Source of the DNA: an uncultured Verrucomicrobiae bacterium
GTDB taxonomy: Bacteria > Verrucomicrobiota > Verrucomicrobiia > Limisphaerales > JAFGQR01
NCBI GenBank assembly: GCA_963788655.1
Contig: CAWBHS010000057.1
Span: forward strand, 96,001 to 160,000
Reading direction: 5' to 3'
Length of the DNA: 64,000 nt
Shown: positions 17,333 to 39,744 of the stretch, in pieces
Layout: every line of letters starts with the position of its first letter
Numbering within the stretch: position 1 is the first letter of the stretch
Made by a program: the position numbers and the translations under genes
Notes under the pieces: model-generated
Told to the model about the DNA's origin: nothing
Seen by the model: the letters and a program-made list of their open reading frames with translations, nothing else
The model's database searches: none

Positions 17333-17388
17333 GAGGGAATCGGCCAAAATAAAAATTGCGGATGACTCGCCACACGGAATCCCGGCGC

Positions 17389-18262: not shown

Positions 18263-18501
18263 AACAAAATATCAAGTTTTGTATCCAGTGATTCCCATGC
18301 GGGCCGCATTGGAGTTCAACCTTCAGATGGTTTGAACGGCCTACATCCATTTGCCCAAGCTGAAGCTTGAATTCCAGCAGTTGCGCAACGGATCCCAACG
18401 CCAACATGAGCATTGCGATTGCGTTATCTGAACGGTGAATGAATTGCCGTCAGCAAGATCCAGCCGAACTGGTACAGCGCTCATTCACCGCTGATCTTTT
18501 A

Positions 18502-18516
18502 GCATTTGGGTTGCCA
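18502..18516 (-). promoter_or_regulatory. Putative sigma54 -24/-12 promoter for SDR-topIB
   Basis: Minus strand TGGCAA-CCCAA-ATGC(T), GG-N10-GC. Confidence 0.55.
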
Positions 18517-18582: not shown

Positions 18583-18625
18583 TGCAATCTGCACGGCGAG
18601 CGGAGCCAGCAGTCTGCAAGTTGCA
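18583..18625. promoter_or_regulatory. Tandem TGCA-N3-TGCA palindromes (putative activator sites)
   Basis: TGCAATCTGCA (18583) and TGCAAGTTGCA (18615), 32 bp apart, between divergent sigma54-like promoters. Confidence 0.65.
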
Positions 18626-18713
18626 TTCGCGCTGGCAGCCGACGCAGTGCCGGGAGCGGTTCCTTTGTGAAGTCCTTGCCCAATCGGAGGTGGAAAATCC
18701 TCGCCGCCTGCTT

Positions 18714-18728
18714 CGGCACGCTTCCGGC
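18714..18728 (+). promoter_or_regulatory. Putative sigma54 promoter for the CYP152 unit
   Basis: CGGCAC-GCTTC-CGGC(T), GG-N10-GC. Confidence 0.55.
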
Positions 18729-18981
18729 TTGAAGAAACGGGAAATGACGCAGGGCGATTCAGTTGAACTGGGGAACGCACACGTGTCGCCAGAGCCAGTC
18801 AGCGACACGCCGGCGGGGACAGCCGGAGAGTTGCGCTCCCCAATCCAATTGAAGGGTTACGTGGAAGAGCCTGTTTTAACCTCGGGCGAGGAACCTGGTC
18901 GAATTTCAAAACCGGCTCTAAGTCCGTTCCCTCCATGAAAGACACGAATCGACGGAACATCATCGTGATCGGCGAGGCATT

Positions 18982-20241
18982 ATGACGCGCATCCCCCGCG
19001 ACAAAAGCCCGGACAGCACGCTGGCGCTGCTGCGCGATCCCTATCGGTTCATCTCCAAACGCTGCCAGTGGCATGGTTCGGATATCTTCGAAACCCGGCT
19101 CCTGTTGCGCCGCACGATATGCCTGCGAGGCCGCGAGGCGGCGCGCCTTTTCTACAATCAGGAGCGCTTCGTTCGTCATGGCGCGCCGCCCGGGCGAATT
19201 CAGAAGACGCTCTTTGGCCGAGGCGGCGTTCAAAGTCTGGACGACGGCGCCCATACGCATCGCAAACAGATGTTCATGGCGCTCGTGACGGGGGAACAGG
19301 TGCGCGCCTTGACGGAAATCATGACCGCGGTCTGGCGGCAGACACTGCCTGACTGGGAAGCGCGCGGAACGATTGTCCTTTACGAGGAAACCCGCGAGAT
19401 CCTGACGCGCGCCGTCTGCCGCTGGGCCGGCGTGCCGCTGGAAGAACGCGACGTGGCACGGCGGACGCGAGACTTGACGGCGCTGTTCGACAATGCCGGA
19501 AACATCGGACCGCAGCACTGGTGGGCGCGCTATGCCCGCCGGCGGGCCAATCGGTGGATCGAAGAAGTGGTGGCGCGGATTCGCCGCGGTGAAGTGGAGG
19601 CACCGGCGGCAAGCGCCGTACAGGTCATTGCGCAGCACCGTGATTTAAGCGGCGAGCGGTTGCCGCTCCGCGTGGCGGCAGTCGAGGTATTGAACCTCCT
19701 GCGGCCGACTGTGGCCGTGGCGGTTTATATCACGCTCGCGGCGCACGCACTGCGCACTCAGCCCGAATGCCGGAAGAAATTGGCCGGGGGCGCCAACGGA
19801 TACACGGACAGCTTTGTGCAAGAGGTCCGCCGCTTTTATCCGTTCTTTCCGGCACTCGTGGCGCGGGTGCGACGCGATTTTGAATGGCTCAATTACCCGT
19901 TTCCAAAAGGCAGACGCGTGATGCTGGATCTGTACGGCACCAACCATGATGCACGCCTATGGGATGCCCCGGAAGAATTTCGGCCAGAACGCTTTGATGG
20001 CTGGCGGGGGGATCCGTTCGGCTTCGTGCCGCAAGGCGGCGGTGAGGCAGAGATCCATCATCGATGTCCGGGAGAAGGCATCGCGATGGAATTAACGAAG
20101 ACCGCGGTCCGAATCCTCTTGCAGCACATCACTTATGAGGTGCCGGAACAAGACTTGAAGATTGACTACACCCGCCTCCCCGCGCTGCCCCGGAGTCATT
20201 TTATCCTGACCGAAATCCGGAGCCGTTCGCCTTTACTTTGA
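18982..20241 (+). CDS. Cytochrome P450 CYP152 family fatty-acid peroxygenase
   Basis: LFGRGGVQSLDD, I-helix NLLRPTVA (Arg-Pro of peroxygenases), EVRRFYPF, HRCPGE heme ligand. Confidence 0.93.
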   Translation: MTRIPRDKSPDSTLALLRDPYRFISKRCQWHGSDIFETRLLLRRTICLRGREAARLFYNQERFVRHGAPPGRIQKTLFGRGGVQSLDDGAHTHRKQMFMALVTGEQVRALTEIMTAVWRQTLPDWEARGTIVLYEETREILTRAVCRWAGVPLEERDVARRTRDLTALFDNAGNIGPQHWWARYARRRANRWIEEVVARIRRGEVEAPAASAVQVIAQHRDLSGERLPLRVAAVEVLNLLRPTVAVAVYITLAAHALRTQPECRKKLAGGANGYTDSFVQEVRRFYPFFPALVARVRRDFEWLNYPFPKGRRVMLDLYGTNHDARLWDAPEEFRPERFDGWRGDPFGFVPQGGGEAEIHHRCPGEGIAMELTKTAVRILLQHITYEVPEQDLKIDYTRLPALPRSHFILTEIRSRSPLL

Positions 20242-20316
20242 CCGTTCCAAACCAGGTGCCTTCCCCCCATGCATTAGGCAATAGGCGCGCGGGCTTGAAA
20301 CTAATTCGGGCAATCC

Positions 20317-21599
20317 TCATCCTTCAGCGGAGGCGGGCTGTCCCTGGTGATGCTGGTCTTCGCGAGCTTCCTTGTTTTGAGTTCGGCCAAGCCAGCGCGA
20401 GAACGGCGTGGCGGTAAGGCCATGGAGGACCAGCGAAACGGTAATCACGAGACTGGTCAGCGGCCAGACCAGTTCACTGCCGGTCTTATGATGAGCATAG
20501 GTGGCGTAAAAGAGCGCCGCAATGCCCACGGGGCCAAACCAGCTCAGGAACAGGATTTCCCGCCACGTGTGCAGGCTTTTGTAGAATGGGCGTAACATCA
20601 GAACGGTCGGGATCCGTCTCCCGAACACAATGCACACAGCCGCAAAAACTCCGCCCCAGCCCCACGTCTTCCATTGCTCGATAGGCAACTCCAACCCGAG
20701 CAGAATGAAGATCGGAACGATGAAAAAGCGGTTAATCATTTCCTGTTCCTGTTTCTGTTCCTTTTCTTCGCGCTTGCCGAGAACATGTACGAGAACACTG
20801 CCCCGGTCACGAAGACGCCGAGGATGGCGTTCGCGTTGAGCAAACGGATCACCGCCAGCGCCGTGAGCGAAAGGGCGATTCTAAATCCCCCGTGCGCCGA
20901 CGACTCCATCCATTCCCGCTGCTCCACGAACTTGAACGCGCGGGCAGCCAGAAACCCAAGCATGGCCCCGATCGCAATGCCCATTCCCTGCTCGTGCAAC
21001 AGCGATTGGGTCGCCCACTCGGACCAACCTTTTGCGGGGATTGGGTGCGTCAGCATCATAATCGGCAGCGTGGCGAAAATGAATGCCAGCCCGTCATTCG
21101 CCCCTGATTCGGCGGAGATATTGTAGCGCACTTGATCCGGCAGATTCTTTTCGGCAATCGAGCCGGTAACGATGGGCGTAGAGACCACTGGATCGGTCGG
21201 AGTTACGATCGCGCCGGCCATCAATGAAGTCCAAAAACCGACCTCCCAGAACCAATGCACCAGCGCGCTGGAGATGAACCACATCATGAACATGCCGGCC
21301 AGGAGAATCGTCACCAGCCAATTCCGATTTCGGGCCCAATAGAAGCTCGGCAGCCGCAGCGCGATACCCATCAGACCAATCGCCAAGGTAAACCGCGCGG
21401 CATCCTCCAGCACGCGCATTGGCTCGCCAAAGTTTTCGAGTCGGACCCAACCCAGCACATGCGGTCCGGCCACGAACCCGATAACCAGCGCCAGCAATGG
21501 ATCGCAGAGCCACACGGAGCGCGCGCGGGCGGACACCGCGTTCAGCAGCAGGACGGCGCCGGCGAGCACAGCGACGACTATGAATAGGTTGTTGGGCAT
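20317..21599 (-). CDS. Cation:proton antiporter (CPA1/NhaP/Sod2-like); frameshift at about 20760-20785
   Basis: TPTDPV, AESGANDG and WFGPVGIAA motifs; multiple TM helices split over two ORFs. Confidence 0.88.
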
Positions 21600-21817
21600 A
21601 TGCAGAATCTTGGATTCACGCGCGGACGGATGCGGTCACGCCGCCGCGTATCCTGTCTGACCTCTCCGGAATCGCCGTGCTGTCGCCGTTCATCGTTTTG
21701 CCTGGCCATCGCCGCGACCCCACCGCGTCAGGATCGCTTCCCGATGATAGAATAGGTTTGGTTTCGTCCATCGCATTTTTGTGTTGGCCGCGGCCTGCGG
21801 CATCTTCGGAGCATTCC

Positions 21818-21832
21818 GCAAACACCGTGCCA
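21818..21832 (-). promoter_or_regulatory. Sigma54 -24/-12 promoter upstream of the antiporter
   Basis: Minus strand TGGCACG-GTGT-TTGC, an exact match to the TGGCACG-N4-TTGC consensus. Confidence 0.7.
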
Positions 21833-22048
21833 CCCTCTCCCGAGCCTTGAGTCGCGCCGGAGGCGTAACGATTCAATCAGGACCAGAGACAACAGGAAAT
21901 GATTTGGTATTTTATAAGGACGACGCAAACTCGTCGTCCAGTGACTGCGTCCATGCGCCACCCAAGCCTCTTGCCGAGCGTGCCCCAGCCTCTAGGTTCT
22001 CGGTCGCCTTGGTTCATTGTGGGGGTTCAAAGGATTCCTACTTCAGGC

Positions 22049-23119
22049 TCATTGCGGCTTTTCGTGAAGGATATCTTCCAGATAGAGCGTCTGCACCACG
22101 ACCATGGCGACGACGATCAACGGCGTTGCCCACAACACGCCCCAAATCCCAAAAAGGCTGCCGAGCAGAAGCTGGCCGCTAATCAACAACGCAGGCGGTA
22201 CCGCCACAGTCCGCTTCTGAATGAGTGGCGTGATCAGATTACCTTCCAATGCCTGCGCTACCACATACACAATCAGCGCGTAGAGCACCGTCATCCGTCC
22301 TTGCGTCCACGCCACCAGAAGTCCCGGGATCGCCGCCACGATGGGACCGATGAAGGGCACGAAGGTTAGCAAACCAGCGATCAGTCCCAGGGCCAACGCC
22401 ATGGGCACCCCGGCAATCCACAGCCCCAAACCGGTGAGGGTACCGGTGACCGCCATGGACGCAAAGCGCCCAACAAACCACCACCGCAGCGTGGTCCCCA
22501 GCCGCGCCGCCACCTCGCCATAACGCGCACGTCGTTCGGGGGGCACCAGGCGCAGGGTGTGATGCCGATAGAAGCCGGGATTCACCGCCAGGTAAATCGC
22601 GGTGACCGCCAGGATCAACAAGTTGGTCACGGCACCCAAGGCCGTCGAAAAAATGCTGCGCGTGGAATTCCAAATCGAGCGGAGGCTCAGGCTCGACCCG
22701 CTGCTGCCCTTGAATGCGTCGCCAGAAACCAACGGTCGAGTCCAATCGTTCTGCCGCAGCAATCCCTCCACCTGATTGACTCCTTGCGACGCCCGTTGCG
22801 AGATTTGGTTGAATTGGCTGCTGATGCGGGCGCCCAGCAGCCAGCCAACGGCGACGGGCACACCCAGGCTCAACAGGATAAAAAGCAGCAAGCCGAGCCA
22901 TCGCGGCAGACGGACGTTGCGCGCCAGCCAAACACTGACGCCATCCATCAGCACGGCCAGGACAGTGGCGCCGAAGAGCACCAACAACACGTGCGCAAAG
23001 GTCGGCAACAGCCGCAATGCAATGAGGACCACCACAACGATGGCCCACAAAACGATCGGCCGCTTCAACCAAGAACCGGAACGTGTGCCTTTCTGCTGTG
23101 CCGCGTTGCCCGCCATCAA
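22049..23119 (-). CDS. AI-2E family transporter
   Basis: Polytopic membrane protein; LLTFVPFIGP, QALEGNLITPLIQ, VPPAL, WATPL. Confidence 0.9.
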   Translation of the reverse strand: MMAGNAAQQKGTRSGSWLKRPIVLWAIVVVVLIALRLLPTFAHVLLVLFGATVLAVLMDGVSVWLARNVRLPRWLGLLLFILLSLGVPVAVGWLLGARISSQFNQISQRASQGVNQVEGLLRQNDWTRPLVSGDAFKGSSGSSLSLRSIWNSTRSIFSTALGAVTNLLILAVTAIYLAVNPGFYRHHTLRLVPPERRARYGEVAARLGTTLRWWFVGRFASMAVTGTLTGLGLWIAGVPMALALGLIAGLLTFVPFIGPIVAAIPGLLVAWTQGRMTVLYALIVYVVAQALEGNLITPLIQKRTVAVPPALLISGQLLLGSLFGIWGVLWATPLIVVAMVVVQTLYLEDILHEKPQ

Positions 23120-23123
23120 ACCA

Positions 23124-24124
23124 TCACTTCCTTGATTTGGCCGCCAGTCCTACAGCGGCGCCCAGGGCACCCAATCCCGTCCACAACCAACCGCGGTTCT
23201 TGGTCAGCCAAAGCTGACGGCTTCGCGGCCGCGCCATTTGGTCGAAGGCGCCGTGGGCGCCATGATCCCCTGGCAACGGTTCGATCAAATTGTCCGCGCG
23301 GTCCGGTTCGACCGGTTGACCGCGGAGCTGGCTTTGGTACCCGTGGCGGCCCAGATACCGGTCCAGCAGCCGGGGCGCGAAACGATTGGCCCAAATCGTC
23401 GCCACCGAGGACGCCCCCACAAAGATCTCATTCCGTTTGTGGCGCGAGGCGAAGACGATCGCATCGGCGGCCACCTCGGGCTGATAAATGGGGGGGACCG
23501 GCTGCGCTTTGCGCGGCAGCCGATTGCGCACCCAGCCGAACTGCGGGGTGTTCAACGCCGGCATCTGGACCATGCAAATGCGAAGCTGACTCCGGTCGTG
23601 CATCAATTCGCAGCGGACCGACTCGGTGAATCCTTGAATGGCATGTTTGCAGGCGCAGTAAGCGGACTGGAGGGGAATGCCCCGGTAGGCCAGCGCGGAA
23701 CCGACCTGCACCACCACGCCGGTATTGCGCGGCCGCATCCGACGCAAGGCCGCCAGCGTGCCCCAAACGAATCCCAGATATGTCACGTCGGTGACGCGTT
23801 TGTATTCCGCGGGCGTCATTTCGATCGCCGGCGAAAACACGGTGACCATGGCGTTGTTCACCCACACATCAATCGGCCCCAGTTCGCGTTCAGCGGCTTC
23901 GGCAGCGGCTTCCACCTGATCCGGATCCGCCACGTCCGCCGGATGAACGAGGGCCCGGCCGCCAATCGCTTCGACTTCGCGCTTGGCCTGTTCAAGTCCT
24001 TCTTGGCCGCGCGCGATCAGGCAAATGTTGGCGTGCTCGCGGGCGAAGGCCCGGGCGGTCGCGCGTCCGACTCCGGCCGAGGCGCCAGTGATGACAATCG
24101 TTCTTGCGGGTGGTTGGTGCTCAT
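23124..24124 (-). CDS. SDR oxidoreductase; 1-base deletion near 24101
   Basis: MSTNHPQ(E)|TIVITGASAGVGRATA...WVNNA...YCACK; the frame is continuous with ORF 23124-23933. Confidence 0.88.
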
Positions 24125-24211
24125 TTTAATTCAACTTTTGATAGAGAGGAGACTTCGTTCAACGGTTTGCCATTGGCAGTGAATTCCGAAAAATCCCGCA
24201 CTATCCCTTCA

Positions 24212-24226
24212 GCCTAGTCTGTGCCA
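24212..24226 (-). promoter_or_regulatory. Putative sigma54 promoter for SDR-AI-2E
   Basis: Minus strand TGGCAC-AGACT-AGGC(T). Confidence 0.65.
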
Positions 24227-24303
24227 GCGAGTTCTGATCGTCCCAGTCCACTGTTTTACTGTTGTATTTGGTTCTCACCAATGGATGAGAATTCCTGCTG
24301 GTC

Positions 24304-24346
24304 TGCAAATTGCCATTGAACGGGTGCTGGCACCTTGCAGAACGCA
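24304..24346. promoter_or_regulatory. Tandem TGCA-N3-TGCA-like palindromes
   Basis: TGCAAATTGCC (24304) and TGCAGAACGCA (24336), 32 bp apart. Confidence 0.55.
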
Positions 24347-24406
24347 ACGGCAAAACGAGCGGTGATTGCGCTTCTATTTATCCTGCTGACGCTAATTTCA
24401 TGCTTG

Positions 24407-26143
24407 CTAGAACCTCAGCTCAGCCGCGCATTCGAGCATCAGGGCATGCACAAAGGCTTGCGGCAGGTTCCCGCGCAATTCTCTTTGGACCACATCATAT
24501 TCTTCGGCGAACAGCCCGGGCGGGCCGCACGCCGTCCGGGCCCGTTCGAACCAGCGGGCCGCCTCCGTCCATCGTCCGAGTTGCGCATACGCCAGCGCCA
24601 TCCAATATCCGCAGATCGTGAAGGCACCCTCGCTTTCACTGAGCGGCAGGCTGGAACGGAACCGATAACAATACCCGTCCTGAACCAGCTCCTGCTCGAT
24701 GGCGCGAAGGGTCGCCAGGTGACGCGGATCCTGCGGTTCAACTGCTCCTCGCAAGGCCGGTAACAACAGCGAGGCATCCACGCGTTCATCCTCCGCTGAA
24801 CGCTGCCAGCGCCCGGTCGGATGCAATGCATGGGCGTCCGTCTCCGCCACGATGGCGTCCGCCAGAGCCGTCCAGCGGGCGGCAACCGGCGGTGGCGCTG
24901 CCCCCTTGGCGAGGCTACGTAGGCCCGCCACACAAATCAGGCGGCTATGGGTCCAGCAGCGGTCCTCAACTTCCCAAATGCCGGAGCCCGGTTCATGCCA
25001 CCGCTGCTCGATGGCGGCAACAGCAAGCTCCGCCGCCCGCCAATCTTCCGCGTCGAAACAGCCGGCTCGGGCGGCGGCGGCAAATAGCAACAACGCTTCC
25101 GCCAGCGCATCGAGTTGAAATTGTTTTCCCGCCCGGTTGCCAATGATCACCTGGTCGCCTCCCGCATAACCAAGCAGATGATCCAGCTTGGATTCATCTG
25201 GCACTTTGCCACCGGCGGTGGTGTACGCCGGCCGCAAGTGGGGCCCATCCTCCAGTAGCCGCGCACGGACGAACTGAACGAACTGGCGCAGTAGCGGCTT
25301 TGCTCCCACTGCTGCAGCGGCCTGACCGGCGTAGCATTGATCGCGAATCCACACATAGCGGTAATCGTAATTCCGGCCGGAGTTGGCGCGCTCAGGCAGC
25401 GAGGTCGTGGCCGCCGCCACCAATCCGCCCCTGGAGGTCGTCAGTCCGCGCAGCACGGCGCAGGCATGTCTCGCGTCGCGTTCGGCTACACTGATGCGCA
25501 GATCGGTAACCGCTTCCTGCCAGCCCTTTTCGGTTCTGGCCCACAACGCCCCAGCGTCCGGTGGCGGGTCATGAAAAGGTTGCCGGGACATTTCCAGCAC
25601 GAGGTCGTAGCATTGCCCTTCATTGACGTTCAACTCGAGTGCCAGTCCGCCTTCCTTCCGCTTTCGGGCATGGTCCCCACCGTTCCAACGCACGTGAAAC
25701 GCGCCGGTGCGCGCCGTCCAAATCCCGTGATCGCAATGCTGCAGATGCCGCAGCGGTTGGCGGCCAAAGTCCGCCCGTGGATCCAGCGCCACGCGAACGT
25801 GGGCCTGTCCTTTTCGCGCGAGCACCCGCCGCAACAGGATGACGCGTTCGGGATCAGCCGGAAACGCCAACGCTTCCCGGCACTCGATTTCTCCTCCGCC
25901 AACCAACACCCACCGGCTTCGCCAGATGAGCGATCCCGCCTCGTAATAGCCGCCCCAAACGAATTCCTCGATGGGCGTCACGGCATAAGCGCCGGCGCCG
26001 CCCAGCAGCGACGTGAAGACCGCCTCGCCGTCCCAGGACGGGAGGCACATCCACACCATCTCCCCTGCCGGACCGACCAGCGCACCACGCTCCCCGTCCG
26101 CAATCAATGCGAACAGTCTAAGAATCGGCAGCATGAGGATCAC
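24407..26143 (-). CDS. Glycoside hydrolase family 15 (trehalase/glucoamylase-like)
   Basis: AAATTSLPE, YDYRYVWIRD, GIWE, EGAFTICGYW, LFAEE, GNLPQAFVH. Confidence 0.93.
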   Translation of the reverse strand: MILMLPILRLFALIADGERGALVGPAGEMVWMCLPSWDGEAVFTSLLGGAGAYAVTPIEEFVWGGYYEAGSLIWRSRWVLVGGGEIECREALAFPADPERVILLRRVLARKGQAHVRVALDPRADFGRQPLRHLQHCDHGIWTARTGAFHVRWNGGDHARKRKEGGLALELNVNEGQCYDLVLEMSRQPFHDPPPDAGALWARTEKGWQEAVTDLRISVAERDARHACAVLRGLTTSRGGLVAAATTSLPERANSGRNYDYRYVWIRDQCYAGQAAAAVGAKPLLRQFVQFVRARLLEDGPHLRPAYTTAGGKVPDESKLDHLLGYAGGDQVIIGNRAGKQFQLDALAEALLLFAAAARAGCFDAEDWRAAELAVAAIEQRWHEPGSGIWEVEDRCWTHSRLICVAGLRSLAKGAAPPPVAARWTALADAIVAETDAHALHPTGRWQRSAEDERVDASLLLPALRGAVEPQDPRHLATLRAIEQELVQDGYCYRFRSSLPLSESEGAFTICGYWMALAYAQLGRWTEAARWFERARTACGPPGLFAEEYDVVQRELRGNLPQAFVHALMLECAAELRF

Positions 26144-26409
26144 CTGTGGCGGCAGACGGCTCGTCGCGCGAGAAGCGCTGCCAGTCGGAAGATAGATTTT
26201 TCTTTGTCATCAAAAATACTTTCCCATTCGTCCGCGGATGCAAGACCGCAGGTTTTACGCCGACCTTGTTGAAGTCGTGCCTTCGCGCGCTGCAGGTTCG
26301 CGCATCCTTGCCGGGACTTCCGCTTCGCGAGTCTTTTGGTCAAGCCGAGCGTTTCTGGGATCATCACCGAGAGAGACAAGTCCCTCTGAAGCTATCCTCG
26401 CACCTTCAC

Positions 26410-26453
26410 TGCAATTTGCCTGATTCCCAGCCTGGTCCGGGTTGCAGATTGCC
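26410..26453. promoter_or_regulatory. Tandem TGCA-N3-TGCC palindromes
   Basis: TGCAATTTGCC (26410) and TGCAGATTGCC (26443), 33 bp apart. Confidence 0.55.
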
Positions 26454-26562
26454 ATGATGCTCGCCCGCCAGTGCGCCGGGGCGGATTGCTCCGGCTCTTC
26501 AATCCGCGAATTTTCGCGGCGAACTGAAGGCGAGAACGCACAATTCATAGGCCGCAGCCCGA

Positions 26563-26577
26563 TGGCATGCAGCAGGC
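26563..26577 (+). promoter_or_regulatory. Putative sigma54 promoter for tandem DUF892 gene
   Basis: TGGCAT-GCAGC-AGGC(T). Confidence 0.6.
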
Positions 26578-26592
26578 TAACTGAGACGACCA

Positions 26593-27562
26593 ATGGCACG
26601 AAACCATCGAGAAGAGCTGGTTCACTTTCTGAGTGATCTTTATTCGATTGAACTGCAGGCCCTCGCGCAACTGGTCACCGCGCCCGACATGGCCGGCGAT
26701 CCAGGCGTGGCTGCGGATTTCCGCATCCACTGCGCCGAGACTGAACGGCAGGCCGAACAGGTCCGGGCGCGTCTTGAAGCTCTGGGCGGTTCGCCGTCGA
26801 AGATCAAGGACGCCGTGATGCAACTCGGCGGCAAGGGCTTTCTGCTGTTTGCCCAGCTCCAAAACCAAACTCCCGGGCGGCTGGTGGCCCATGCTTACTG
26901 GTACGAAGCGATGGAATGGGCCGGATACGCAGTTCTGGCTCGCACGGCGGAACTGGCCGACGATCCGGAGACGGTCGAGGTTGCCCGGTCCATCCAGGCC
27001 GAGGAACGCACGATGATGGAGCGGTTGGAGCGGGACTTCGACGCCGTCGAGACTGCGGCCCTTGGCGATGTGGCGCCCAGCGATTTGCCCACTCACATCC
27101 GGAACCATTTGGCGGCCGGCCACGCGTTAAACGTCCAGAGCGCCAAGCTCCTTCAGAAGGGAGCCGATGGGACCGCAAGCACCGAGCTGGCTCAGCTCTT
27201 CAAGCAACCCGCGCTGGACACCGCTCATCAACTCACCCGGATCGAGGAGCGTCTCGACAGGCTCGGCGCCAGCAGGTCGGCGATTGAGGACGCCGCCATG
27301 AAGCTCGGCGCGCTGAACTGGAGCGCGTTCTTCCGCGCACAGCGTGACACACCCTTCAAGTATCTTGCTTTCAGCTACGCGGTCGAACATCTGGTCATTG
27401 CCGGATTTCGAGCTCCTGCAGCGGACCGCGCAGCGGGCGGGTGACACGGCCACGGCAGGACTGTGCCAACAGCTCATCGCCGGTAAACGGTCCATCGCCC
27501 AGCAATTGGCCGACGGCGTGGACTTGGCCGTCAGGACAACGCTCGTCGAATTGCAGACTTAA
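26593..27562 (+). CDS. Tandem ferritin-like (DUF892/YciF-like) protein; frameshift near 27407
   Basis: Two repeats of LSDLYSIE...H..ET..Q...RLEALG.SPS.IKD / RLDRLGASRSAIED...AVEHLVIAG|FELLQRTA. Confidence 0.8.
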
Positions 27563-27679
27563 TCCGCCATTTTGCCACGTCCCGCCAACGCGTGCGAAGC
27601 GCGGGCGGCTGCTCAAATTGCACATTGTTCGACAGCTGCTCCTTCGAAAACGACAGATCACAACACCGACAGGCCAGAA

Positions 27680-28273: not shown

Positions 28274-28276
28274 ACG

Positions 28277-28870
28277 ATGAGGGACAAGCGTATGCCTGAA
28301 AACCAGAACTCATCCCCACCGCGAAATCGGCCGTCTGCCTGGCGAACCTACGGCTTGGCGGTACTGTTCGGTCTGGTGTTTGGGTTCCTGCTGCAAAAGG
28401 GCGGGGTGGCGAAATACCACGTGCTGGTCGGCGTTTTGTTATTCCAGGATTTCACTGTCATCAAAGTCATGCTCTCGGCCATCGTCGTCGGGATGCTCGG
28501 CGTCTTTGCATTGCGGAGCCTGGGCCTGGTGGAATTGAAAGTCAAAACCACCCGGCTGGGAGAGCAGATTCTGGGCGGTTTGATCTTCGGATTTGGCTTT
28601 GCCGCCAGCGGCTATTGCCCGGGCACTGGGGCAGCCGCCTTGGGTCAAAATAACTGGGATGCCATCTTTACCATACTCGGCATGATAGCCGGTTCGTACG
28701 GATTTGCCATGGTTTCCGCCGCATTGTCCCGCACGGTCCACCATTGGGGAAACCGCGGCCCGCTTCGATTGCCGGACTTGTTTCACGTCCGGCTGACGCC
28801 CTTTGTGATCGTGTTCGGGCTGTTGTTGATCGGCGGGCTTTGGCTGCTCGAGTATCTCACAGTCCGCTAA
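28277..28870 (+). CDS. YeeE/YedE family transporter subunit (DUF6691-like)
   Basis: GLVFGFLLQKGG, GGLIFGFGFAASGYCPGT. Confidence 0.9.
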   Translation: MRDKRMPENQNSSPPRNRPSAWRTYGLAVLFGLVFGFLLQKGGVAKYHVLVGVLLFQDFTVIKVMLSAIVVGMLGVFALRSLGLVELKVKTTRLGEQILGGLIFGFGFAASGYCPGTGAAALGQNNWDAIFTILGMIAGSYGFAMVSAALSRTVHHWGNRGPLRLPDLFHVRLTPFVIVFGLLLIGGLWLLEYLTVR

Positions 28871-28919
28871 CTTTGTTCGCTCGATACATCCACGCGATGA
28901 GTCATCGGAACTGCATTCA

Positions 28920-29939
28920 TCATCCGTGGCGCGATGGAGCATGATCAATCTCCAGGGGCTTCTTAAAGGTGAGGGTGCGATACGGGAACGGAATCTCTAT
29001 GCCCGCCTCATCCAGTGCCCGTTTGACCACGGTAACCACTTCATCTTTGGACTGCCGGATGTCCACTGGCCGAGGGCCCGTCCACCAGGTCACCTCGAAA
29101 TTGATGCTGCTATCGGCAAATTCGCAGGCAAATACTTGAATCGGCTTTTCATCCGACACGGTTTCGCAGGCTTTCACCGCCTTTTCGATGACGGCGCGAG
29201 ATTGATCCACGTCCTCGCCGTAAGCCACCCCGGCAATGATCGTCGCGCGCCGCAGCTTCTCGTCAGTCAGGATCTGAACCGGATTCTTGAAGATGGTGGA
29301 GTTGGGCACCACCACCAGCTCTCCGGATGTCCGGCGAATAAACGTATTCCGAATGGTGACCTCGACCAGGCTTCCCTCGATGTCCTGGCAACAGATGTAA
29401 TCGCCGTTCTCAAACGGGAACCGCCACAAGATCAGGATGCCGGCGAAGAAATTCTCGAAGATATCCTTGAAGGCAAAACCAATGGCGACGGAGCCCAGCC
29501 CCAAACCCGCCAGTGCTTTGCTCGGCGTCAAATTCGGGAAGATGATGGTGAGCGTGGTCAAAATTCCCAACAACCAGATCAGGATGATCAAGAACCGCGA
29601 GATCAGTGTCCGTTGGGATTGCTTAAGCCGAAAGTGCTTGAGCAATCCTCCAGCGAATCTCGAGCACAATTTGGCCACCCCAATGGTCAGGACAAGAATG
29701 ATAATGCCGCCAACGATCCTTGGGACATCGCTCAGGAAACCGTTCCACAGGTGGATCACCGAGTCCCAGATTTTTTGGAAAGAACTCTGACCCGATTGAC
29801 TGCCCGTGTCGGCAGCCGCAGCCAGAATAGTGTTCATAAAGGCCATCGAAGGGCAGACGCCTGCACCAATTGGCTGCCGGCTTTCGTGAGCGGCCGTGGC
29901 CTCGGTCGTTGTCGTGGTCGCCTGTTCCCTTGCCGTCAT
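28920..29939 (-). CDS. Small-conductance mechanosensitive channel (MscS family)
   Basis: AIGFAFKDIFENFFAG, VVVPNS, FADSSINF, IEIPFP. The ATG at 29939 overlaps the upstream stop (ATGA); start uncertain. Confidence 0.9.
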   Translation of the reverse strand: MTAREQATTTTTEATAAHESRQPIGAGVCPSMAFMNTILAAAADTGSQSGQSSFQKIWDSVIHLWNGFLSDVPRIVGGIIILVLTIGVAKLCSRFAGGLLKHFRLKQSQRTLISRFLIILIWLLGILTTLTIIFPNLTPSKALAGLGLGSVAIGFAFKDIFENFFAGILILWRFPFENGDYICCQDIEGSLVEVTIRNTFIRRTSGELVVVPNSTIFKNPVQILTDEKLRRATIIAGVAYGEDVDQSRAVIEKAVKACETVSDEKPIQVFACEFADSSINFEVTWWTGPRPVDIRQSKDEVVTVVKRALDEAGIEIPFPYRTLTFKKPLEIDHAPSRHG

Positions 29940-31334
29940 TGTTTGGGTTTCTCCAAAGGGTACCCGGCGCACTTCCAGGCTTGCATGCTCCCGGGAACAT
30001 TGCAGACGCGTTCGAAGCCTTCCTGTTGCAAAATGCTGGCGGCAATGCTCGCGCGGAAACCGCTGCCGCAGTAGGTGACTACCGGTTCGGCGCGATTCAG
30101 ATCCTTCGCCTGTTTCCGCAGGTCCGGCACGAAGATATGCCGGGCGCCGGGAATATGCCCCGTCGCCCATTCACTGGGGGTGCGCACGTCGAGCACCTGC
30201 ACGTTGGCGCCGAGGCGCTTCAATTCATGCACGCTCATTTGCGGCGTCTCCACAAAGGGCAGGCCCGCGGTCTCCCAGGCGTTCATGCCGCCGGCAAGAT
30301 AACCGGCAAAATTCGTAAAGGCGGTGCGCCACAGCAAGGTCACAACGGGTTCCAGCCGGTCATCGCTGTCGAGCACGAGCAGTATCGAATCACTAAATTC
30401 GAGCAGGCGTCCCGCCCACACGGAAAGTTCGGGGCGTGCGGCAATGTTCAACGCGCCGTCAATATGCCCGCCGCCGAAGCTCAACATGTCCCGCGTATCG
30501 AGCAACACGTGCTGTCCGCTTTCCACCGCTTGCTGGAATGCCTTTGCCGGCAGTGCGGGAATGGGCGGTAATCCCCCGAATGTCTTGGATCCTGCCGCAT
30601 TGACCTGTTTCATCGGCCGGTAATGCCGTGGCTCGGGCGGCGCGGTGGCCAGCACTTTTTGCGTAAACTGCTTTCGGTCGCTTATTCCCAAGTAGGGATT
30701 GAACTGCTTTTCATACCCAATCGTGCTGCTCTTGCGGTCCCCAATGTCCGGGCCGCACGCGGAGCCGGCGCCGTGTCCGGGATACAGAATGACGCCGTCG
30801 TCGAGCTGCCAGTAAAATTCGCGGATGCTTTTGAAGAGTTGTCCCGCCAGTTCTTCGGTCTCGTCTTCGCCCAGCAAATCCGGACGCCCCACGGAATCGA
30901 CGAACACCGTGTCACCCGAAAAGACGCCAAAGGACTTCTTACGCCGGGCTTCGGCGATGAGAAAGGAAATGTGCTCCGGTGTATGACCGGGCGTATGCCG
31001 GGCCGTCAGCACCACGTCGCCCAACTCAAAGGTCTGGCCGTCGGTTACCTTTTCAGTAGCGAAGCCGGTACTGGGCGCCGCCCGCATGGCTAACGCAAAT
31101 GGGGATCTCGCCCAGACGGTGACTTAACTCGCGCGCCCCGCTCATGAAGTCGGCGTGGATATGAGTTTCGAAAATTTGCGTGATGGCCACGCGATGTTGG
31201 CGGGCCAGTTGAAGGTAGATATTGCAGTCCGGCCGGGGATCGATAACCACCGCCGTGCCCGCCCTGCTGTCGCCCACCAGATAGGACAGTTGGGCGATGC
31301 CTTCGGTATGGACGCGTTCGAAGATCAATGACAT
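29936..31334 (-). CDS. MBL-fold persulfide dioxygenase-like hydrolase fused to two rhodanese domains; frameshift near 31067
   Basis: ETHIHADF, HTPGHTPEH, GDTVFVDSVGRPDL, PGHGAGSACG; C-terminal rhodanese with YCGSGFRA. Confidence 0.9.
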
Positions 31335-31340
31335 GACCGT

Positions 31341-31676
31341 TTAGCTTCGTTTGGATTTCTCGTTGTTCTTTTGGCTGCGGCGGTGCGGCGATCCATCGTG
31401 GCCCCGCACAAGCTTGCGATATTGCTCCTTGGTGGCCATGATCTTTTGCTTCTGTGGCGCCGGCAGGTTGCGGCCCGCGCGGTTCTGATAAAAGTTCAGC
31501 ATCGAGATGCCCGAGGAAAGCACGCTGCCCTTTTTGCGCTTCGACGATTTGACGGATCGCAGGAGCGACTGGGCGATGGCGTGCGGTGATTTCTTTTGGA
31601 ACAGCCCCGGCTCAAGATCCAGTGCGTCGCTGGAGGATTGAGCTTGGCGCACCCAATTTGTGTTCTTGGTTGGCAT
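31341..31676 (-). CDS. DUF3175 family protein
   Basis: SDALDLEPGLF...IAQSL...SMLNFYQNRAGRNL. Confidence 0.8.
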   Translation of the reverse strand: MPTKNTNWVRQAQSSSDALDLEPGLFQKKSPHAIAQSLLRSVKSSKRKKGSVLSSGISMLNFYQNRAGRNLPAPQKQKIMATKEQYRKLVRGHDGSPHRRSQKNNEKSKRS

Positions 31677-31870
31677 CGCGTGCGAATGACCGTTGGGTTC
31701 GTTGGTCCGCAGTATTCGTCTTCGCCGCCCTTCCCTCCGAAGACATTGGCAGCAACCGGGGAAACTCCCGGAAGCGGCCCGCGCGGGAAGAATGCCGCCC
31801 CACCTTCACACCCGCGGCTGGGGCGGGGGTCAATCGGGGCGGCTTTCCCAGCCGCGGCGCGGCCCATTCA

Positions 31871-33777
31871 TCAACGGTTTTGGATGGTCACATCGTCCTG
31901 CACTCGTTTGACCCCTTTGATGTCCTGAATCTTTTCTTTGAGGTTTTGCAGGGCGGCTTGGGAGTCGGCCTTGCCGTAGAGCTGCACGACGCCATTATCC
32001 ACCTTCGCATGTATGCTGGAACCCGGAGTCGTTCGCACCTCGCGGTCAATCGTGGCCTGGATCTTTCGCTCCAGTTTGCGATCGTCCAATTGCATCAAGT
32101 CCGCGGCGCCTGCGCCTTTTGAAGCGTCCGGGGCGCTTTGATCCAACGTTTGTTGACCGGCATTCTCCTCGCGATTACGGGTATATTGGCGATCTTCCAT
32201 GCGGGTGCCAGAACCTCGCTGAAATGAGGCCTGGCCAAAATAAGCATCGACGCCCTGTTGCCACTGGGCCCGCTGACGCGCGTTCATGAACTGCGCCTTG
32301 GTTGCCGCGATTAACACGGCGTCCCCATTGCGCGCCGGGCGCAAGGCGCGGACCGGCACCAGCACATCGGTTTCACCAATCCCCAATGCGCCGCCGTAAG
32401 AAATGATGGCAAATGGCATTGCGCCGCGTTGCAAGTCCACAATCAAATCACTCACGTTTCCCACCGACTCGCCATCCTGTCCCCTTACGTCCCGACCGAT
32501 CAACGAACTGGCTTTCATGGTCGAGCGATTCCGCTCGTTCAGCATCTGGCGGTTACTACCCGAACGCTCCGGCGGCAGAGCTCCCCGGCGAGACGCCTCG
32601 CGATGGGACCAGCCTGCTTCCTCGCTTTGCCACTCGGGCTCCTGCCCGCGGGCGAACTGCCGGTTCTGCTGGTTGTAGCCCTCATTTTGCTGGTTGTAGG
32701 ATTGATTCGGTTGGTTGTAATGGGCATTCCACGTCTCGGATTGGTGCGGGGCGCCAGTGAAAAAACGATCAATGTCCTGCGCCCACTTTTCCTGCTCCAT
32801 ACCCGTCCAATTGCGGTCGGGCCGCTGGGGTGCGTTCTGAAGCTGCTCCTCGGTCGCCGAGAGCATCAGTTGTTTGCCGCTGGACGACCGCAAGGTGCGA
32901 AGGGGCACGAGGACATTGCTTTTACCCAGGCCCGCTATACCCCCAGTGGCAATCACGGCGAAGGGCGCCTGGCCGCTGCGCAGATTGATGATCAAATCCT
33001 TGACCTCGCCGAGCGATTCGTTCTGGTCATTGGTTACCTTTTTGCCGATGAGCGTGCTGGCGCGGCAGGAGTTGTGGGCGATTTCACTGCGCTCCCAATC
33101 GGAACGTCCTTGCCCGGCTTGCGTCTGATCCTCGTCGGTGTTTTCGCGCGCTGAACGATCCGTGCGACTCGTCTCCTGTTCCCGCGTGTATTGACGGTCC
33201 TGAGCGGATGTCGTGAACCGATCGCGGCGGTACTGGGACTGCGACTGATTGCGGCGGAACGGCTGGCCATAATAGGCATCAATGCCGTCCGCCCATTCTT
33301 CGTTTTGGACCGCGGAAGCCCACGCGCCCTGCGGTTGTTCACTGGCGTTTTCGAATGACTGCTTGGACGCGGACAGCAACAGTTCATTGGCACGATCGGA
33401 CTGGTTCAGATCCTCAATGGGCACCAGAACATCCGTGGCGCCGATCCCCAATGCCCCACCGGTACGTAATGATGGCAAATGGGGCCCGCCCCGCGGCGAG
33501 GTTGACGATCAAGTCATTGACCTTGCCGAGGTTCTCGCCTTGGTCGTTCTTGACCGCTTTGCCCATCACGTCGCTCGCTCGGCATGTTTCCTTGGGCATT
33601 CGGCGAGCTCCGCGGCTGCGGGATGTTTCTTGGTACATGTCGATCGCCCTGGTCATGACTGCGCTGGCCCTGATACGACTGATCACCCGTGCGACCGGAC
33701 TGGGCGCCGGCGTTGACGGTCAGCATCACGCCGGTGGCCGCTAGGACGACGGCAAATTGATGTAATTGAATTCTCAT
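31871..33777 (-). CDS. Secreted protein with three PRC-barrel domains and a C-terminal BON domain; frameshifts near 33640 and 33465
   Basis: Signal peptide MRIQLHQFAVVLAATG; three RAS.L.G..V.N..GE.LG.V.DLI.NL repeats; C-terminal IHAKVDNGVVQLYG...IKGVKRVQD. Confidence 0.82.
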
Positions 33778-33858
33778 GTATATCCTTATGTTTTTGTCGA
33801 TTGATGGGTACAATGTTTTCACGCCGCCGTTCGCGGCGGCCCGATGAGTATCTTAATA

Positions 33859-33873
33859 GCCATTGACATGCCA
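33859..33873 (-). promoter_or_regulatory. Putative sigma54 promoter for the PRC-BON unit
   Basis: Minus strand TGGCAT-GTCAA-TGGC(T). Confidence 0.65.
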
Positions 33874-33985
33874 TCGGCTTGAAAGACTGGTGGCACGCAC
33901 CGTTCACCCGCGTACTTCTGTGCCATTCGGACCTTCGCTCGTTTCAACCGGTTGGCAGACGGCGGAGAACACCGGTCGATTGAAA

Positions 33986-34028
33986 TGCAAAGTGCAATTC
34001 TCCCCACCGCCGAAGCCTGCATTCTGCA
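33986..34028. promoter_or_regulatory. Tandem TGCA-N3-TGCA palindromes
   Basis: TGCAAAGTGCA (33986) and TGCATTCTGCA (34018), 32 bp apart. Confidence 0.65.
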
Positions 34029-34051
34029 TAATGAGGGCTTCATAAAACGAT

Positions 34052-34960
34052 TCACGCATGGTCGAGTTGCAAGGCCCGGCCATAGGCCGCCTGCGTAAAG
34101 GCCGCGAAAGCCTGGTCGAGGTTCAGGGCGGGAAATTCCATCTGTTCGAGATCCGTGGTGCCCAAGCCGAGCCGGCCCGCCTCCCACAAGTGATGGACGC
34201 CACGGACCGTGAATCCCAACAGCATCGCTCCCACCACGTCGGCGGCGATTGGATCGTTGCTGGCCATGGCCAGCCCGGTTTCCACCGTATGTCCGCCAAT
34301 GGGTCCGAGGCCAACCATCGCCGGATGTCCAACGGTCACGGCGAATTGCGCCGGGAAACGTCGCGCCATGGCGGCGATGAACGAATGCATGTCGTCGAAA
34401 AACTGATGCCCATGTTCGTACGAGCCCCGCGGATGGCCATAGTAATCCGCCGCGGGAAAGGACATGGCGACGTTTTTCAATCCCAAGGTGACAGTCGCCG
34501 TTTCGTGGACTTTGAGTTGGTTCAGCGTGATCAGCGTTTCGTACGTCAACACGCGCGGGTTCACCATGACACTGGACTGGGGGCCTGCCACGTCACGGTT
34601 CGGCGCGTATTCCAGCGTTACTTCCTTAAACGGCGGCCGGTTGTGGTCGAAGAATTCCGCGTACTCTTCTTCCACCACATCCATGAGGCCGGCCAGGCGG
34701 AAGATCTCGTCCGTTTCGCCGGCCCCCGAGCCTCCCGTCACCACGAGTTCCTTTGGGTGGAACTGTTTTATGTAACGCAACACGGCCCGTAACGAATCCG
34801 GTTGCGTGACGGCAGTCGTATCGTCCGTATCCGCCCAGGTGTCGTTGGGTTTGATCGCGACGACTTTGTTACGGAGCAGGGACTCGAGGTCAAAATGCCC
34901 CATTGCTTGGACAATGGCGTCTTGGATCTCCCCGTTTTGCGTGATGGCGACTTTGGGCAT
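34052..34960 (-). CDS. DUF362 domain protein
   Basis: KVVAIKPN, QLKVH...VTLGLKN, ASNDPIAAD. Confidence 0.85.
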   Translation of the reverse strand: MPKVAITQNGEIQDAIVQAMGHFDLESLLRNKVVAIKPNDTWADTDDTTAVTQPDSLRAVLRYIKQFHPKELVVTGGSGAGETDEIFRLAGLMDVVEEEYAEFFDHNRPPFKEVTLEYAPNRDVAGPQSSVMVNPRVLTYETLITLNQLKVHETATVTLGLKNVAMSFPAADYYGHPRGSYEHGHQFFDDMHSFIAAMARRFPAQFAVTVGHPAMVGLGPIGGHTVETGLAMASNDPIAADVVGAMLLGFTVRGVHHLWEAGRLGLGTTDLEQMEFPALNLDQAFAAFTQAAYGRALQLDHA

Positions 34961-34979
34961 AAGACACTGTGCGGTCGGT

Positions 34980-35663
34980 TCAATGGGCGTGCTGCGCATG
35001 ATGGGCATGCTTCGCCATTTCTTTCGGATTGTGCATGCCTTCTTTGATGCCCCAATGAATGAGGAGAACGTTCACCGGGTAAGCCGCCAGCAACCCCATG
35101 GAGAGGGAAATGATCAAGCTGCTCCAAAAGAGCGGATCGTTCCAACCGGCCTTGCCGCCCAGCCAAAGGTCCACGCCAACGGCGACAATTTCCATCACCG
35201 CGATGCTAGCCGATTCGCTGTACGCCGCGTCTCGCAATGCCTGGCTCCAGCTTTCTCCCTCCTGCAACAACGGGCCCATGGTCAGCGCAAACCCCATCGC
35301 ATACGCCAATACGAACGTAATGCCGCTGATCCACCAGTTGGAGAGGGAAAGCAAGCCGGCGGCAATCATAACGCCAATAACTTCACCGGCGCCGCAGCCC
35401 GAATAGCAATGGGCAACCGAACGAAAGCCTTTTCGCCAAAGGGAGTCGCGAGTAATCTGCTTTCGTCCCGAGCCATAGTAAATGGCCAACCCGACGGGGC
35501 CGGAGTAGAGGACGGTCAGGATCCACACGACCTTCATCAGCGACATCAACTCCGGGTTCCGGCTGCGCAGATCGTAAATCACCACCGCGAGGCAAATCAA
35601 CATCACCGTCACCCAGACTCCCATGACCCACAAATTCGTAATCGCCGCGCGGAGCGTTTCCAT
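34980..35663 (-). CDS. DUF4396 membrane protein
   Basis: HCYSGCGAGEVIG, SIAVMEI, AYPVNVLLIHWGIKEGM, His-rich tail. Confidence 0.85.
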   Translation of the reverse strand: METLRAAITNLWVMGVWVTVMLICLAVVIYDLRSRNPELMSLMKVVWILTVLYSGPVGLAIYYGSGRKQITRDSLWRKGFRSVAHCYSGCGAGEVIGVMIAAGLLSLSNWWISGITFVLAYAMGFALTMGPLLQEGESWSQALRDAAYSESASIAVMEIVAVGVDLWLGGKAGWNDPLFWSSLIISLSMGLLAAYPVNVLLIHWGIKEGMHNPKEMAKHAHHAQHAH

Positions 35664-35885
35664 ACAGCCTCGTCTCGCTTGCCAATGGCTGTGACCGGAA
35701 CGGACTTACCCCTCGGCGGGCGCTTGGCCAAGCTCGGCCACGTGGTTCCCGCTACGGTTAACCAAGGCGAAACGCACCGGGAGAAGGTGCCGTGATGCTA
35801 CTTCCCGCACGTAATTCACCCCGTCCGCTGCGCGCTTCTGGTTCTCCGTTCCGGTCATTCTTTGCATCCAGTCTCAGCCCATGGC

Positions 35886-36380
35886 TTACACCGCTTGGGC
35901 GGCTTTGGGATTCGCGGAGGCTGACGCGAGCTGGGTCAGCTTTTGGTCGGCGGCTTTTTCCTCGGCGAGGTTTTCTTTCAGCAGCGAGAGCGCCTCGGTG
36001 TGGCCCATTCGTTTGGCCCAGGCGCAGAGGCTGCCGTAAGAAGCCACCTCGTAATGCTCCGTCTTCTGGGCGGCGCAAATCAAAGCGGCATTTAATTCCT
36101 CGGATTGCTTGTGTTGGGACATCACTTCTTCGCCCTCGGCAATGATTCCCTCGATCCCTTTGCATTTTTTCCGTTTGGGCGATTCGTCCAACGATTGAAA
36201 CACTTGATCCAGGCGAGAGACGTGATTCTCCGTTTCTTTAAGGTGCATTTCGAAGGCTTCCCGCAGCTCGTCACTCTCCGCCGCCTTGGCCAATTTGGGC
36301 AGCGCTTTGGTCAATTGTTGTTCGGCGCTGTACATGTCCGCCAGTTCATCCAAAAACAGTTCGTGCAATCCGTTATTCAT
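35886..36380 (-). CDS. Ferritin-like DUF892 (YciE/YciF) protein
   Basis: LADMYSAEQQL, HLKETENHVSRL, AQKTEHYEVASYG, EEKAAD. Confidence 0.93.
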   Translation of the reverse strand: MNNGLHELFLDELADMYSAEQQLTKALPKLAKAAESDELREAFEMHLKETENHVSRLDQVFQSLDESPKRKKCKGIEGIIAEGEEVMSQHKQSEELNAALICAAQKTEHYEVASYGSLCAWAKRMGHTEALSLLKENLAEEKAADQKLTQLASASANPKAAQAV

Positions 36381-36460
36381 AATATCTCGAGTTTTCGTTT
36401 AGTTGTTTGAGAGGCGACGGCGGGCTTTACGCCATACCCGTCCCTGAGATAAATCATAGA

Positions 36461-36475
36461 GCCGTAACCGTGCCA
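36461..36475 (-). promoter_or_regulatory. Putative sigma54 promoter for DUF892-DUF4396-DUF362
   Basis: Minus strand TGGCAC-GGTTA-CGGC(T). Confidence 0.65.
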
Positions 36476-36542
36476 CGAGGCTGGCTTCGGGAGAGGGCCT
36501 GAAGATCAACACACTCACGCAAGCGCTCCCTCCAACTGCTCA

Positions 36543-36585
36543 TGCAGAATGCATTAAACTCGCCCCAAAGCTCATGCAAGTTGCA
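36543..36585. promoter_or_regulatory. Tandem TGCA-N3-TGCA palindromes
   Basis: TGCAGAATGCA (36543) and TGCAAGTTGCA (36575), 32 bp apart. Confidence 0.65.
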
Positions 36586-39738: not shown

Positions 39739-39744
39739 CGGTCC

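Follow-up and report, generated by a model that had tools for sequence, protein, structure and literature searches.

Paired TGCA-N3-TGCA boxes in a Verrucomicrobiota genome as likely enhancers for an AlgB-clade sigma-54 activator

A 64,000-nucleotide stretch of DNA from an uncultured Verrucomicrobiae bacterium (positions 96001–160000 of contig C57, here called the window) contains five pairs of the palindromic 11-mer TGCA-N3-TGCA, each accompanied by a putative sigma-54 promoter. The best reading, and a supported one, is that the pairs are tandem upstream activator sites (UAS) of a sigma-54 enhancer-binding protein encoded outside the window. On sequence grounds this protein very probably belongs to the AlgB clade, and the pairs would be its enhancers in a general-stress regulon of about 14 promoters in the source genome (G000; 8.96 Mb, 115 contigs, 86% complete, genes called with a hexamer-model caller of our own). 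Judging by how its nearest protein homologues are named, the genome belongs to Verrucomicrobiota in the neighbourhood of Pedosphaera. An earlier note on this DNA had attributed the pairs to a single unnamed bacterial enhancer-binding protein (bEBP), not encoded in the window, that co-activates a whole stress island.

In the proposed mechanism a histidine kinase (a candidate being the co-transcribed GAF-PAS-PAS-PAS kinase on contig C60) would phosphorylate the receiver domain of the activator, one dimer of which would occupy each 11-bp box. Two boxes lying three helical turns apart on one face of the DNA would nucleate the AAA+ ring, a DNA loop over 67–113 bp would bring the activator to the sigma-54 holoenzyme at -24/-12, and ATP hydrolysis by the activator would open the promoter. 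We infer by analogy with AlgB that an AlgB-clade protein binds the pairs in the source organism, and likewise infer the dependence on sigma-54, the acting paralogue, the kinase pairing and the signal in that organism.

Box pairs and sigma-54-type promoters

The ten 11-mers lie where the earlier note had placed them, exact or with one mismatch, with start-to-start distances of 32, 32, 33, 32 and 32 bp. None of the five pairs (0/5) overlaps a called gene, in agreement with the claim that all are intergenic, and every pair has a GG-N10-GC box in the right orientation (67, 78, 110, 113 and 68 bp away for pairs 1 to 5). The sites are as follows.

18583-18593 and 18615-18625: enhancer pair 1, two exact TGCA-N3-TGCA boxes, spacing 32
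24304..24346: enhancer pair 2, two one-mismatch boxes, spacing 32, directly beyond the GH15 stop codon
26410..26453: enhancer pair 3, two one-mismatch boxes, spacing 33
33986..34028: enhancer pair 4, two exact boxes, spacing 32, directly beyond the DUF362 stop codon
36543..36585: enhancer pair 5, two exact boxes, spacing 32
18501..18516, minus strand: putative sigma-54 -24/-12 box, 67 bp from pair 1, facing the SDR and topoisomerase IB genes
18714..18729, plus strand: weaker divergent sigma-54 box, 89 bp from pair 1, facing a cytochrome P450 gene
24211..24226, minus strand: sigma-54 box, 78 bp from pair 2
26563..26578, plus strand: sigma-54 box, 110 bp from pair 3
33858..33873, minus strand: sigma-54 box, 113 bp from pair 4
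36460..36475, minus strand: sigma-54 box, 68 bp from pair 5

Single boxes, counted with up to one mismatch, are no commoner in the window than expected (24 seen; order-2 and order-3 Markov resamplings gave 26 and 22), although pairs at 30–33 bp clearly exceed the background frequency against which the earlier note had wished to see them checked: five are seen and 600 resamplings gave at most two. The whole genome holds 2429 boxes and 17 pairs at these spacings, where 0.66 would be expected per spacing. Fourteen of the 17 are intergenic and spread over six contigs; in the three coding pairs both boxes carry a mismatch, and the strict rule detects no promoter box beside them. When a weight matrix is built from the 14 intergenic pairs, it gives them scores of 26.7–33.7, which are circular for these training pairs, and the next site scores 18.6, so that no further strong sites appear. 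Box pairs at a spacing of 38 bp are in slight excess in the genome (5 against 0.66 expected) and may be three-box arrays or overlap effects.

The earlier note had proposed the link between pairs and promoters as a check. A GG-N10-GC box that points at the next gene lies 67–113 bp from 13 of the 14 intergenic pairs and 183 bp from the fourteenth, and four of the five boxes of the form TGGCAY-N7-GCW in the window adjoin a pair. The pair-to-promoter gaps (n=33; 13 from the source genome, the 89-bp and 183-bp boxes being left out, and 20 from relatives) cluster near 56, 67, 79 and 90 bp, with a period of about 11.5 bp (Rayleigh R 0.65). This phasing was matched in 0 of 20000 trials under two nulls, which used a coarser period grid; the kin among the loci are not independent. 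A scan of viral contigs served as background and gave a promoter box in 9 of 120 among the matches listed. The genome encodes one copy of rpoN, and the combination of tandem intergenic palindromes, a downstream GG-N10-GC box and rpoN is that of sigma-54 UAS.

AlgB-clade activators and the distribution of the pairs

The arrangement resembles that of NtrC, a phosphorylation-controlled AAA+ activator which at glnAp2 acts from two palindromes about three helical turns apart and some 100–150 bp upstream of a sigma-54 start. NtrC, however, has nitrogen targets, a longer site, as the earlier note rightly remarked, and a different recognition helix (GRNTLTRK in the pseudomonad NtrC-like row of the AAA-core tree described below). 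NtrC and AtoC were rejected as the activator on motif length and helix.

A closer counterpart has been published for Pseudomonas aeruginosa, and both the AlgB site and the regulator family are already known. According to the excerpts available of PMC12780092, two TGCANNNTGCA repeats 20 bp apart stand at the dimA promoter, AlgB shifts the fragment, scrambling of the repeats abolishes AlgB binding, and dimA induction requires AlgB and BphP but not AlgU. The same paper cites the AlgB DAP-seq motif of PMC8599809, whose excerpts report peaks 226 bp before PA5483, near PA3368, PA4740 and PA2747a, and at many intragenic positions. In the literature covered, the TGCANNNTGCA string was not found beyond PMC12780092. 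In the window the two boxes of each pair are separated by 21–22 bp and across the source genome by 19–22 bp, compared with mostly 20 bp in P. aeruginosa. Since motif and spacing match the AlgB site and the source genome contains the AlgB clade, the type of activator can be named, contrary to the earlier note, which had left it nameless.

Sigma-54-activator domains are represented in the source genome by 19 strong cases among 25 PF00158 matches, and four of these 19 activator-like proteins fall in the AlgB clade:

G000:C60:383533-384876: P0001, full-length AlgB-clade activator, the best candidate
C39:20655: P0003, full-length AlgB-clade activator
C81:43999: C81 paralogue, full-length AlgB-clade activator
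C60:385352-386464 (L027:13353-14465): P0002, shortened AlgB paralogue; it and P0001 diverge from an enhancer pair that lies between them

In a quick tree of 53 AAA cores, computed with no bootstrap and with AlgB sequences from P. putida and S. stutzeri, not P. aeruginosa, the four proteins group with these pseudomonad AlgB sequences (SH-aLRT 96). The best match in P. putida QH1 and in a Stutzerimonas genome is a 448-aa protein named AlgB, followed by a KinB sensor-domain gene; its reciprocal best match in the source genome is P0001, and reciprocal best hits share 48–49% identity. Many of the best homologues are also named AlgB by JGI, and the candidates reached no NCBIfam equivalog cut-off among the 25 best families listed. 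Pfam recognizes a receiver, an AAA+ domain and a Fis-type helix-turn-helix (HTH) in the C60 and C39 copies, the receiver of the C81 copy being more diverged, and alignment shows the phospho-acceptor aspartate, Walker A and B motifs and arginine fingers to be intact in all three full-length paralogues. Their recognition helix reads LGID-x-[AV]-TLYRKR (LGIDASTLYRKRK in pseudomonad AlgB), and the form LGID-x-x-TLYRKRK occurs in 3 of the 19 activator-like proteins. Because three full-length paralogues share this helix, the activator need not be a single bEBP; all three are encoded outside the window.

The three full-length activator genes stand amid stress genes: the start of P0001 is 144 bp from one pair, with two further pairs inside 6 kb, P0003 has a pair on either side and then a CsbD gene, and the C81 paralogue directly precedes Ku. 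The shortened P0002 keeps the receiver aspartate, has no HTH or GAFTGA-type loop, and shows an altered Walker B motif and arginine finger; it could be a feedback decoy, a phosphate sink or a decaying duplicate. A hidden HTH beyond its stop codon was not found by tblastn, and a conserved family of HTH-less paralogues was rejected, the best 120 matches all being at least 430 aa long at about 50% identity.

In a sample of 150 genomes from the order, 15 of the 33 that encode an AlgB-like C-terminus carry the exact pair, as do 2 of the 117 that do not (Fisher 7e-10; p=0.002 after permuting labels within families). A separate sample of 200 genomes from elsewhere in the phylum gave 8 of 25 and 1 of 175, and a genome of the same genus (G050) has neither an AlgB-like protein nor a pair. 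The DNA round the AlgB-like genes of relatives (638 kb, covering 38 of the 39 matches in the order sample, one fragment being left out) holds 31 pairs at 30–33 bp, against 0.15 expected per spacing. Twenty of these come with a sigma-54 box, compared with 185 among 3000 random positions. Seven of 20 downstream open reading frames (ORFs) at these loci belong to a Pfam family (PfpI, DUF1328 (twice), PRC-BON, CsbD, DUF3185 and DUF5670). In two genomes (G183 and G214) the reversed control pattern matches 110 and 125 times, probably owing to a repeat family.

The AlgB-site/sigma-54 wiring appears to recur from Verrucomicrobia to pseudomonads. In Pseudomonadaceae the exact pair is present in 19 of 41 genomes, against 1 of 41 for the reversed control, with no promoter in the query, and 17 of the 19 pairs (one locus per genome) have a box 56–70 bp downstream, against 231 of 2474 random positions. 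When pair and promoter were searched for together in a species collection, pseudomonads made up 60 of 80 titled rows among the matches listed (at least 122 rows), and the gap was 65–68 bp in 100 of 125 among the matches listed, 65–95 bp being allowed. The pseudomonad targets include BON proteins, DUF2383, DUF3509 and DUF1328, as well as small secreted proteins, most of which end in WVF or LVF. Behind a pair and a box at L203, L448, L455, L268 and similar pseudomonad loci come small secreted proteins that end in WVF, LVF or FVF and belong to no Pfam family; they resemble AlgW activators of the MucE/DimA type, WVF being given as the MucE motif in the excerpted supplementary file of PMC12780092.

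The Verrucomicrobiota system thus has in common with that of P. aeruginosa the TGCANNNTGCA boxes about 20 bp apart and a receiver-AAA+-HTH activator of the same clade and recognition helix, and the target families BON and DUF1328 are shared by Verrucomicrobiota and pseudomonad pairs. It differs in that the boxes are tied to sigma-54 motifs at 67–113 bp, that the target set is broad (DUF892, PRC-barrel, PfpI, a TPP enzyme, a trypsin-like protease and SDRs) with no alginate link seen, and that the source genome has three paralogues plus a shortened one. No account that couples the AlgB site to phased sigma-54 promoters and a general-stress regulon, in Verrucomicrobiota or across phyla, was found in the literature covered, though RpoN-dependent AlgB targets may already be described by Leech 2008 and Damron 2012. 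No sigma-54-driven AlgB target is named in the AlgB literature covered, though AlgB carries the sigma-54-contact loop.

Predicted targets and inputs

The genes predicted to be controlled from the window pairs are the following.

16142..18262, minus strand: predicted pair 1 target, SDR running into bacterial topoisomerase IB, one 706-aa ORF
18982..20241, plus strand: possible divergent pair 1 target, cytochrome P450
20317..24124, minus strand: predicted pair 2 target unit, SDR, AI-2E transporter (22049-23116) and Na+/H+ exchanger in two ORFs
26593..27444, plus strand: predicted pair 3 target, tandem DUF892 ferritin-like protein, then two sulphur-transport (YeeE/YedE-type) ORFs
31341..33777, minus strand: predicted pair 4 target unit, PRC-barrel/BON protein, then DUF3175
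34052..36380, minus strand: predicted pair 5 target unit, DUF892 (35886-36380), a 227-aa protein of no Pfam family, and DUF362

A true SDR-topoisomerase IB fusion was rejected because the SDR homology goes on in another frame; a frame change near 17670 joins the two. The pair 2 SDR changes frame shortly after its ATG at 24124, and the pair 4 PRC-barrel/BON protein, which has a signal-peptide-like start at ATG 33777, does so before 33478. The class II ribonucleotide reductase (window 56625-59548) is split over three ORFs, and this and the other splits suggest indel errors in the assembly.

Genes downstream of the 14 intergenic pairs of the genome include DUF892 (twice), PRC-barrel and BON proteins, DUF1328, a small protein that precedes DUF3008 and BON genes, a TPP enzyme with PfpI behind it, a trypsin-like protease, DUF6655, two unknowns, and SDRs with the AI-2E transporter, the Na+/H+ exchanger and topoisomerase IB. 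DUF892/YciF, CsbD, OsmY/BON, PRC-barrel, PfpI and Ku are typical general-stress families. The predicted regulon is genome-wide (14 promoters on six contigs) and so extends beyond the island whose co-activation the earlier note had proposed, and the GH15 gene within the island (24407-26143) has no evident sigma-54 box of its own. A cluster of glyoxalase-like, DoxX-like, AHSA1, PF06983 and DUF1697 genes (window 37600-40302) adjoins the island and has no enhancer pair. Elsewhere in the window (6018-13991) a 2,657-aa protein carries six lamin-tail domains and a CotH kinase domain.

The target families are those of the RpoS, SigB and EcfG-PhyR-NepR regulons, with the difference that control here would lie with sigma-54 and an activator ATPase. 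RpoS and SigB/F/G gave no match over the cut-off (TIGR02980, TIGR02394) in the 86% complete genome, in which ECF sigma factors were not classified, and the PhyR domain (PF22233) gave no match in the same incomplete assembly. Sigma-54 two-component activators are also seen in Desulfovibrio vulgaris, where, as far as the excerpts of PMC3333781 and PMC4641369 go, DVU3334 (kdp) and DVU3305 (a lon-linked stress module, described as belonging to the general stress response) have small local regulons with other target genes.

As regards the input, the kinase encoded after P0001 has the order GAF-PAS-PAS-PAS-HisKA-HATPase and not a periplasmic sensor of the KinB type; its core is 46% identical to that of a relative's HAMP kinase and 25% identical to part of P. 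putida KinB. A phytochrome (BphP) input was not found in the source genome, the PHY domain (PF00360) giving no match at 86% completeness while the control found it in Deinococcus; in both respects the system departs from KinB-AlgB-BphP. Among 19 kinases tested from the AlgB-like loci of relatives (drawn from 44 near AlgB-like genes), six are HAMP kinases of about 600 aa with a KinB-like layout, nine are CHASE3-kinase-receiver hybrids, three are kinase-receiver hybrids and one is a receiver-kinase. The output module appears to be conserved while the sensor is swapped. An operon of CHASE3-kinase-receiver, receiver-kinase and AlgB-like genes recurs at six loci (L337, L343, L344, L350, L353 and L357), an alternative phosphorelay input. 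In the excerpts of PMC10515139 the P. syringae phytochrome induces water-stress genes partly independently of AlgU and AlgB is unmentioned, which fits a role of AlgB in stress without testing it.

Competing explanations and implications

Several observations weigh against enhancers for an AlgB-clade activator. The sigma-54-contact loop of all three candidates reads GSFTGA instead of GAFTGA (GSFTGA is also listed for D. vulgaris DVU3220), and the pair beside P0001 has no box facing P0001, only the 183-bp box facing P0002. The predicted start for pair 3 lies about 4 nt before the ATG at 26593; the mRNA would then have almost no leader, unless transcription uses a box other than this one. No exact IHF consensus was present in any of the six pair-promoter intervals checked. 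The exact pair is missing from 18 of 33 AlgB-like-positive genomes in the order and from 17 of 25 in the phylum, and mismatched pairs account for some of these, not all. Conversely, one genome (G121) has a pair among DUF3309-like genes with no AlgB-like protein found at 95% completeness, and a second (G282) has a pair and no AlgB-like match. Exact pairs also adjoin OrpR-like genes in three genomes (G102, G153 and G154), a box was found under the rule used at only 11 of the 27 exact-pair loci of Verrucomicrobiota relatives, and the frame changes in several island genes may mean that the island is partly in decay.

The activator cannot be told from the box alone, because OrpR-like activators read a related site and adjoin exact pairs. 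A reading of low probability is that the pairs are sigma-54 enhancers of a redox-sensing regulon whose activator is the OrpR-like PAS protein at C60:377012-378313, either by itself or together with the AlgB family. OrpR of D. vulgaris Hildenborough is a sigma-54 activator whose palindrome GGGCGYRTTTTGCGCCC shares the GCA-N3-TGC core with the pairs; it is also a PAS/Fe-S one-component protein of a separate clade, with a regulon of two local operons (excerpts of PMC8359166). In records from delta-proteobacteria and planctomycetes, such pairs stand before NifB/NifX-family and DUF5320 genes; the window targets are of neither kind. The OrpR-like gene of the source genome lies about 5 kb from the AlgB-like gene, but it has degenerate CGCA-type boxes of its own, 32 bp apart, before a divergent NifB/NifX-family gene. 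Co-occurrence is what led to the rejection of the OrpR-like activator: of the 16 genomes in the order that encode an OrpR-like C-terminus, only 1 has an exact pair (Fisher p=0.70), and G050 has an OrpR-like gene and no pair. The OrpR-like activator and its sigma-54 box (C60:377012-379094; L027:5013-7095) form a second activator family with the same geometry. At L396, L397, L046 and L246 (a planctomycete, a delta-proteobacterium and G102) OrpR-like activators stand beside exact TGCA-N3-TGCA pairs; their helices (IDPSTLYRK, IDKTTLWRK, INPSTLFRK) resemble that of AlgB, although their AAA cores belong to another clade.

An AlgB-clade protein might instead bind the pairs without sigma-54, as a repressor or at a sigma-70-family promoter, with the GG-N10-GC boxes incidental or antagonistic. 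At algD, AlgB acts through a sigma-70-family promoter. Excerpts of PMC6932827 describe repression of biofilm and virulence outputs by AlgB in P. aeruginosa, a review states in the part available that unphosphorylated AlgB activates algD (PMC10418997), neither RpoN nor sigma54 occurs in the main text of the dimA paper (PMC12780092), and 16 of the 27 exact-pair loci of relatives have no box under the rule used. Against this stand the boxes at 13 of 14 pairs in the source genome and 17 of 19 in pseudomonads, compared with 6–9% of random positions, their helical phasing, and a GSFTGA loop that is intact, like the ATPase motifs, in all three paralogues; we regard the alternative as just as improbable as the preceding one.

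It is more doubtful still that the pairs are relics, the island having arrived with its enhancers or being in decay, so that the sites no longer work in the source organism. At least four predicted island target genes show frame changes or splits, the same-genus genome has neither regulator nor pairs, and a shortened, catalytically altered paralogue is present. Against this, the pairs on six contigs are intact and each of the three regulators has an uninterrupted reading frame of full length. Split genes amount to between 2 of 153 and 13 of 271 adjacent gene pairs on the five contigs tested, non-stress genes included, which fits assembly indels; since splits also occur on four other contigs, either decay or assembly error may lie behind the frame changes. 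Chance matches of a short palindrome, for which the ordinary number of single boxes in the window would speak, are scarcely credible and are refuted by the pair counts, the spacing peak, the intergenic position and the cross-genome co-occurrence.

Enhancers for an AlgB-clade activator, then, give the anonymous motif a regulator and predict a switch for stress genes in a lineage where RpoS, SigB and PhyR were not found. A wider reading, tentative and somewhat short of probable when taken as a whole, is that AlgB is at root the master activator of a sigma-54-dependent general stress response, which would add a fourth design to those of RpoS, SigB and EcfG. The same pair and phased -24/-12 promoter would stand before BON/OsmY, DUF1328 and ferritin-like genes in lineages ranging from Verrucomicrobiota to Pseudomonadaceae, the input kinases would be interchangeable (light, GAF-PAS, CHASE3, KinB-like), and a stress sigma factor would be replaced in this lineage. 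If this is true, pseudomonad AlgB gains direct sigma-54 targets, including the small secreted proteins with WVF/LVF tails, which would feed the AlgW-AlgU cascade. The old question of the sigma-54 targets of AlgB in Pseudomonas becomes directly testable with a list of promoters of fixed box-to-promoter geometry, candidates for assay in P. putida being those of the BON/OsmY, DUF2383, DUF3509, DUF1328 and WVF-tail microprotein genes, and the box-promoter unit offers a compact marker of stress regulons in uncultured genomes.

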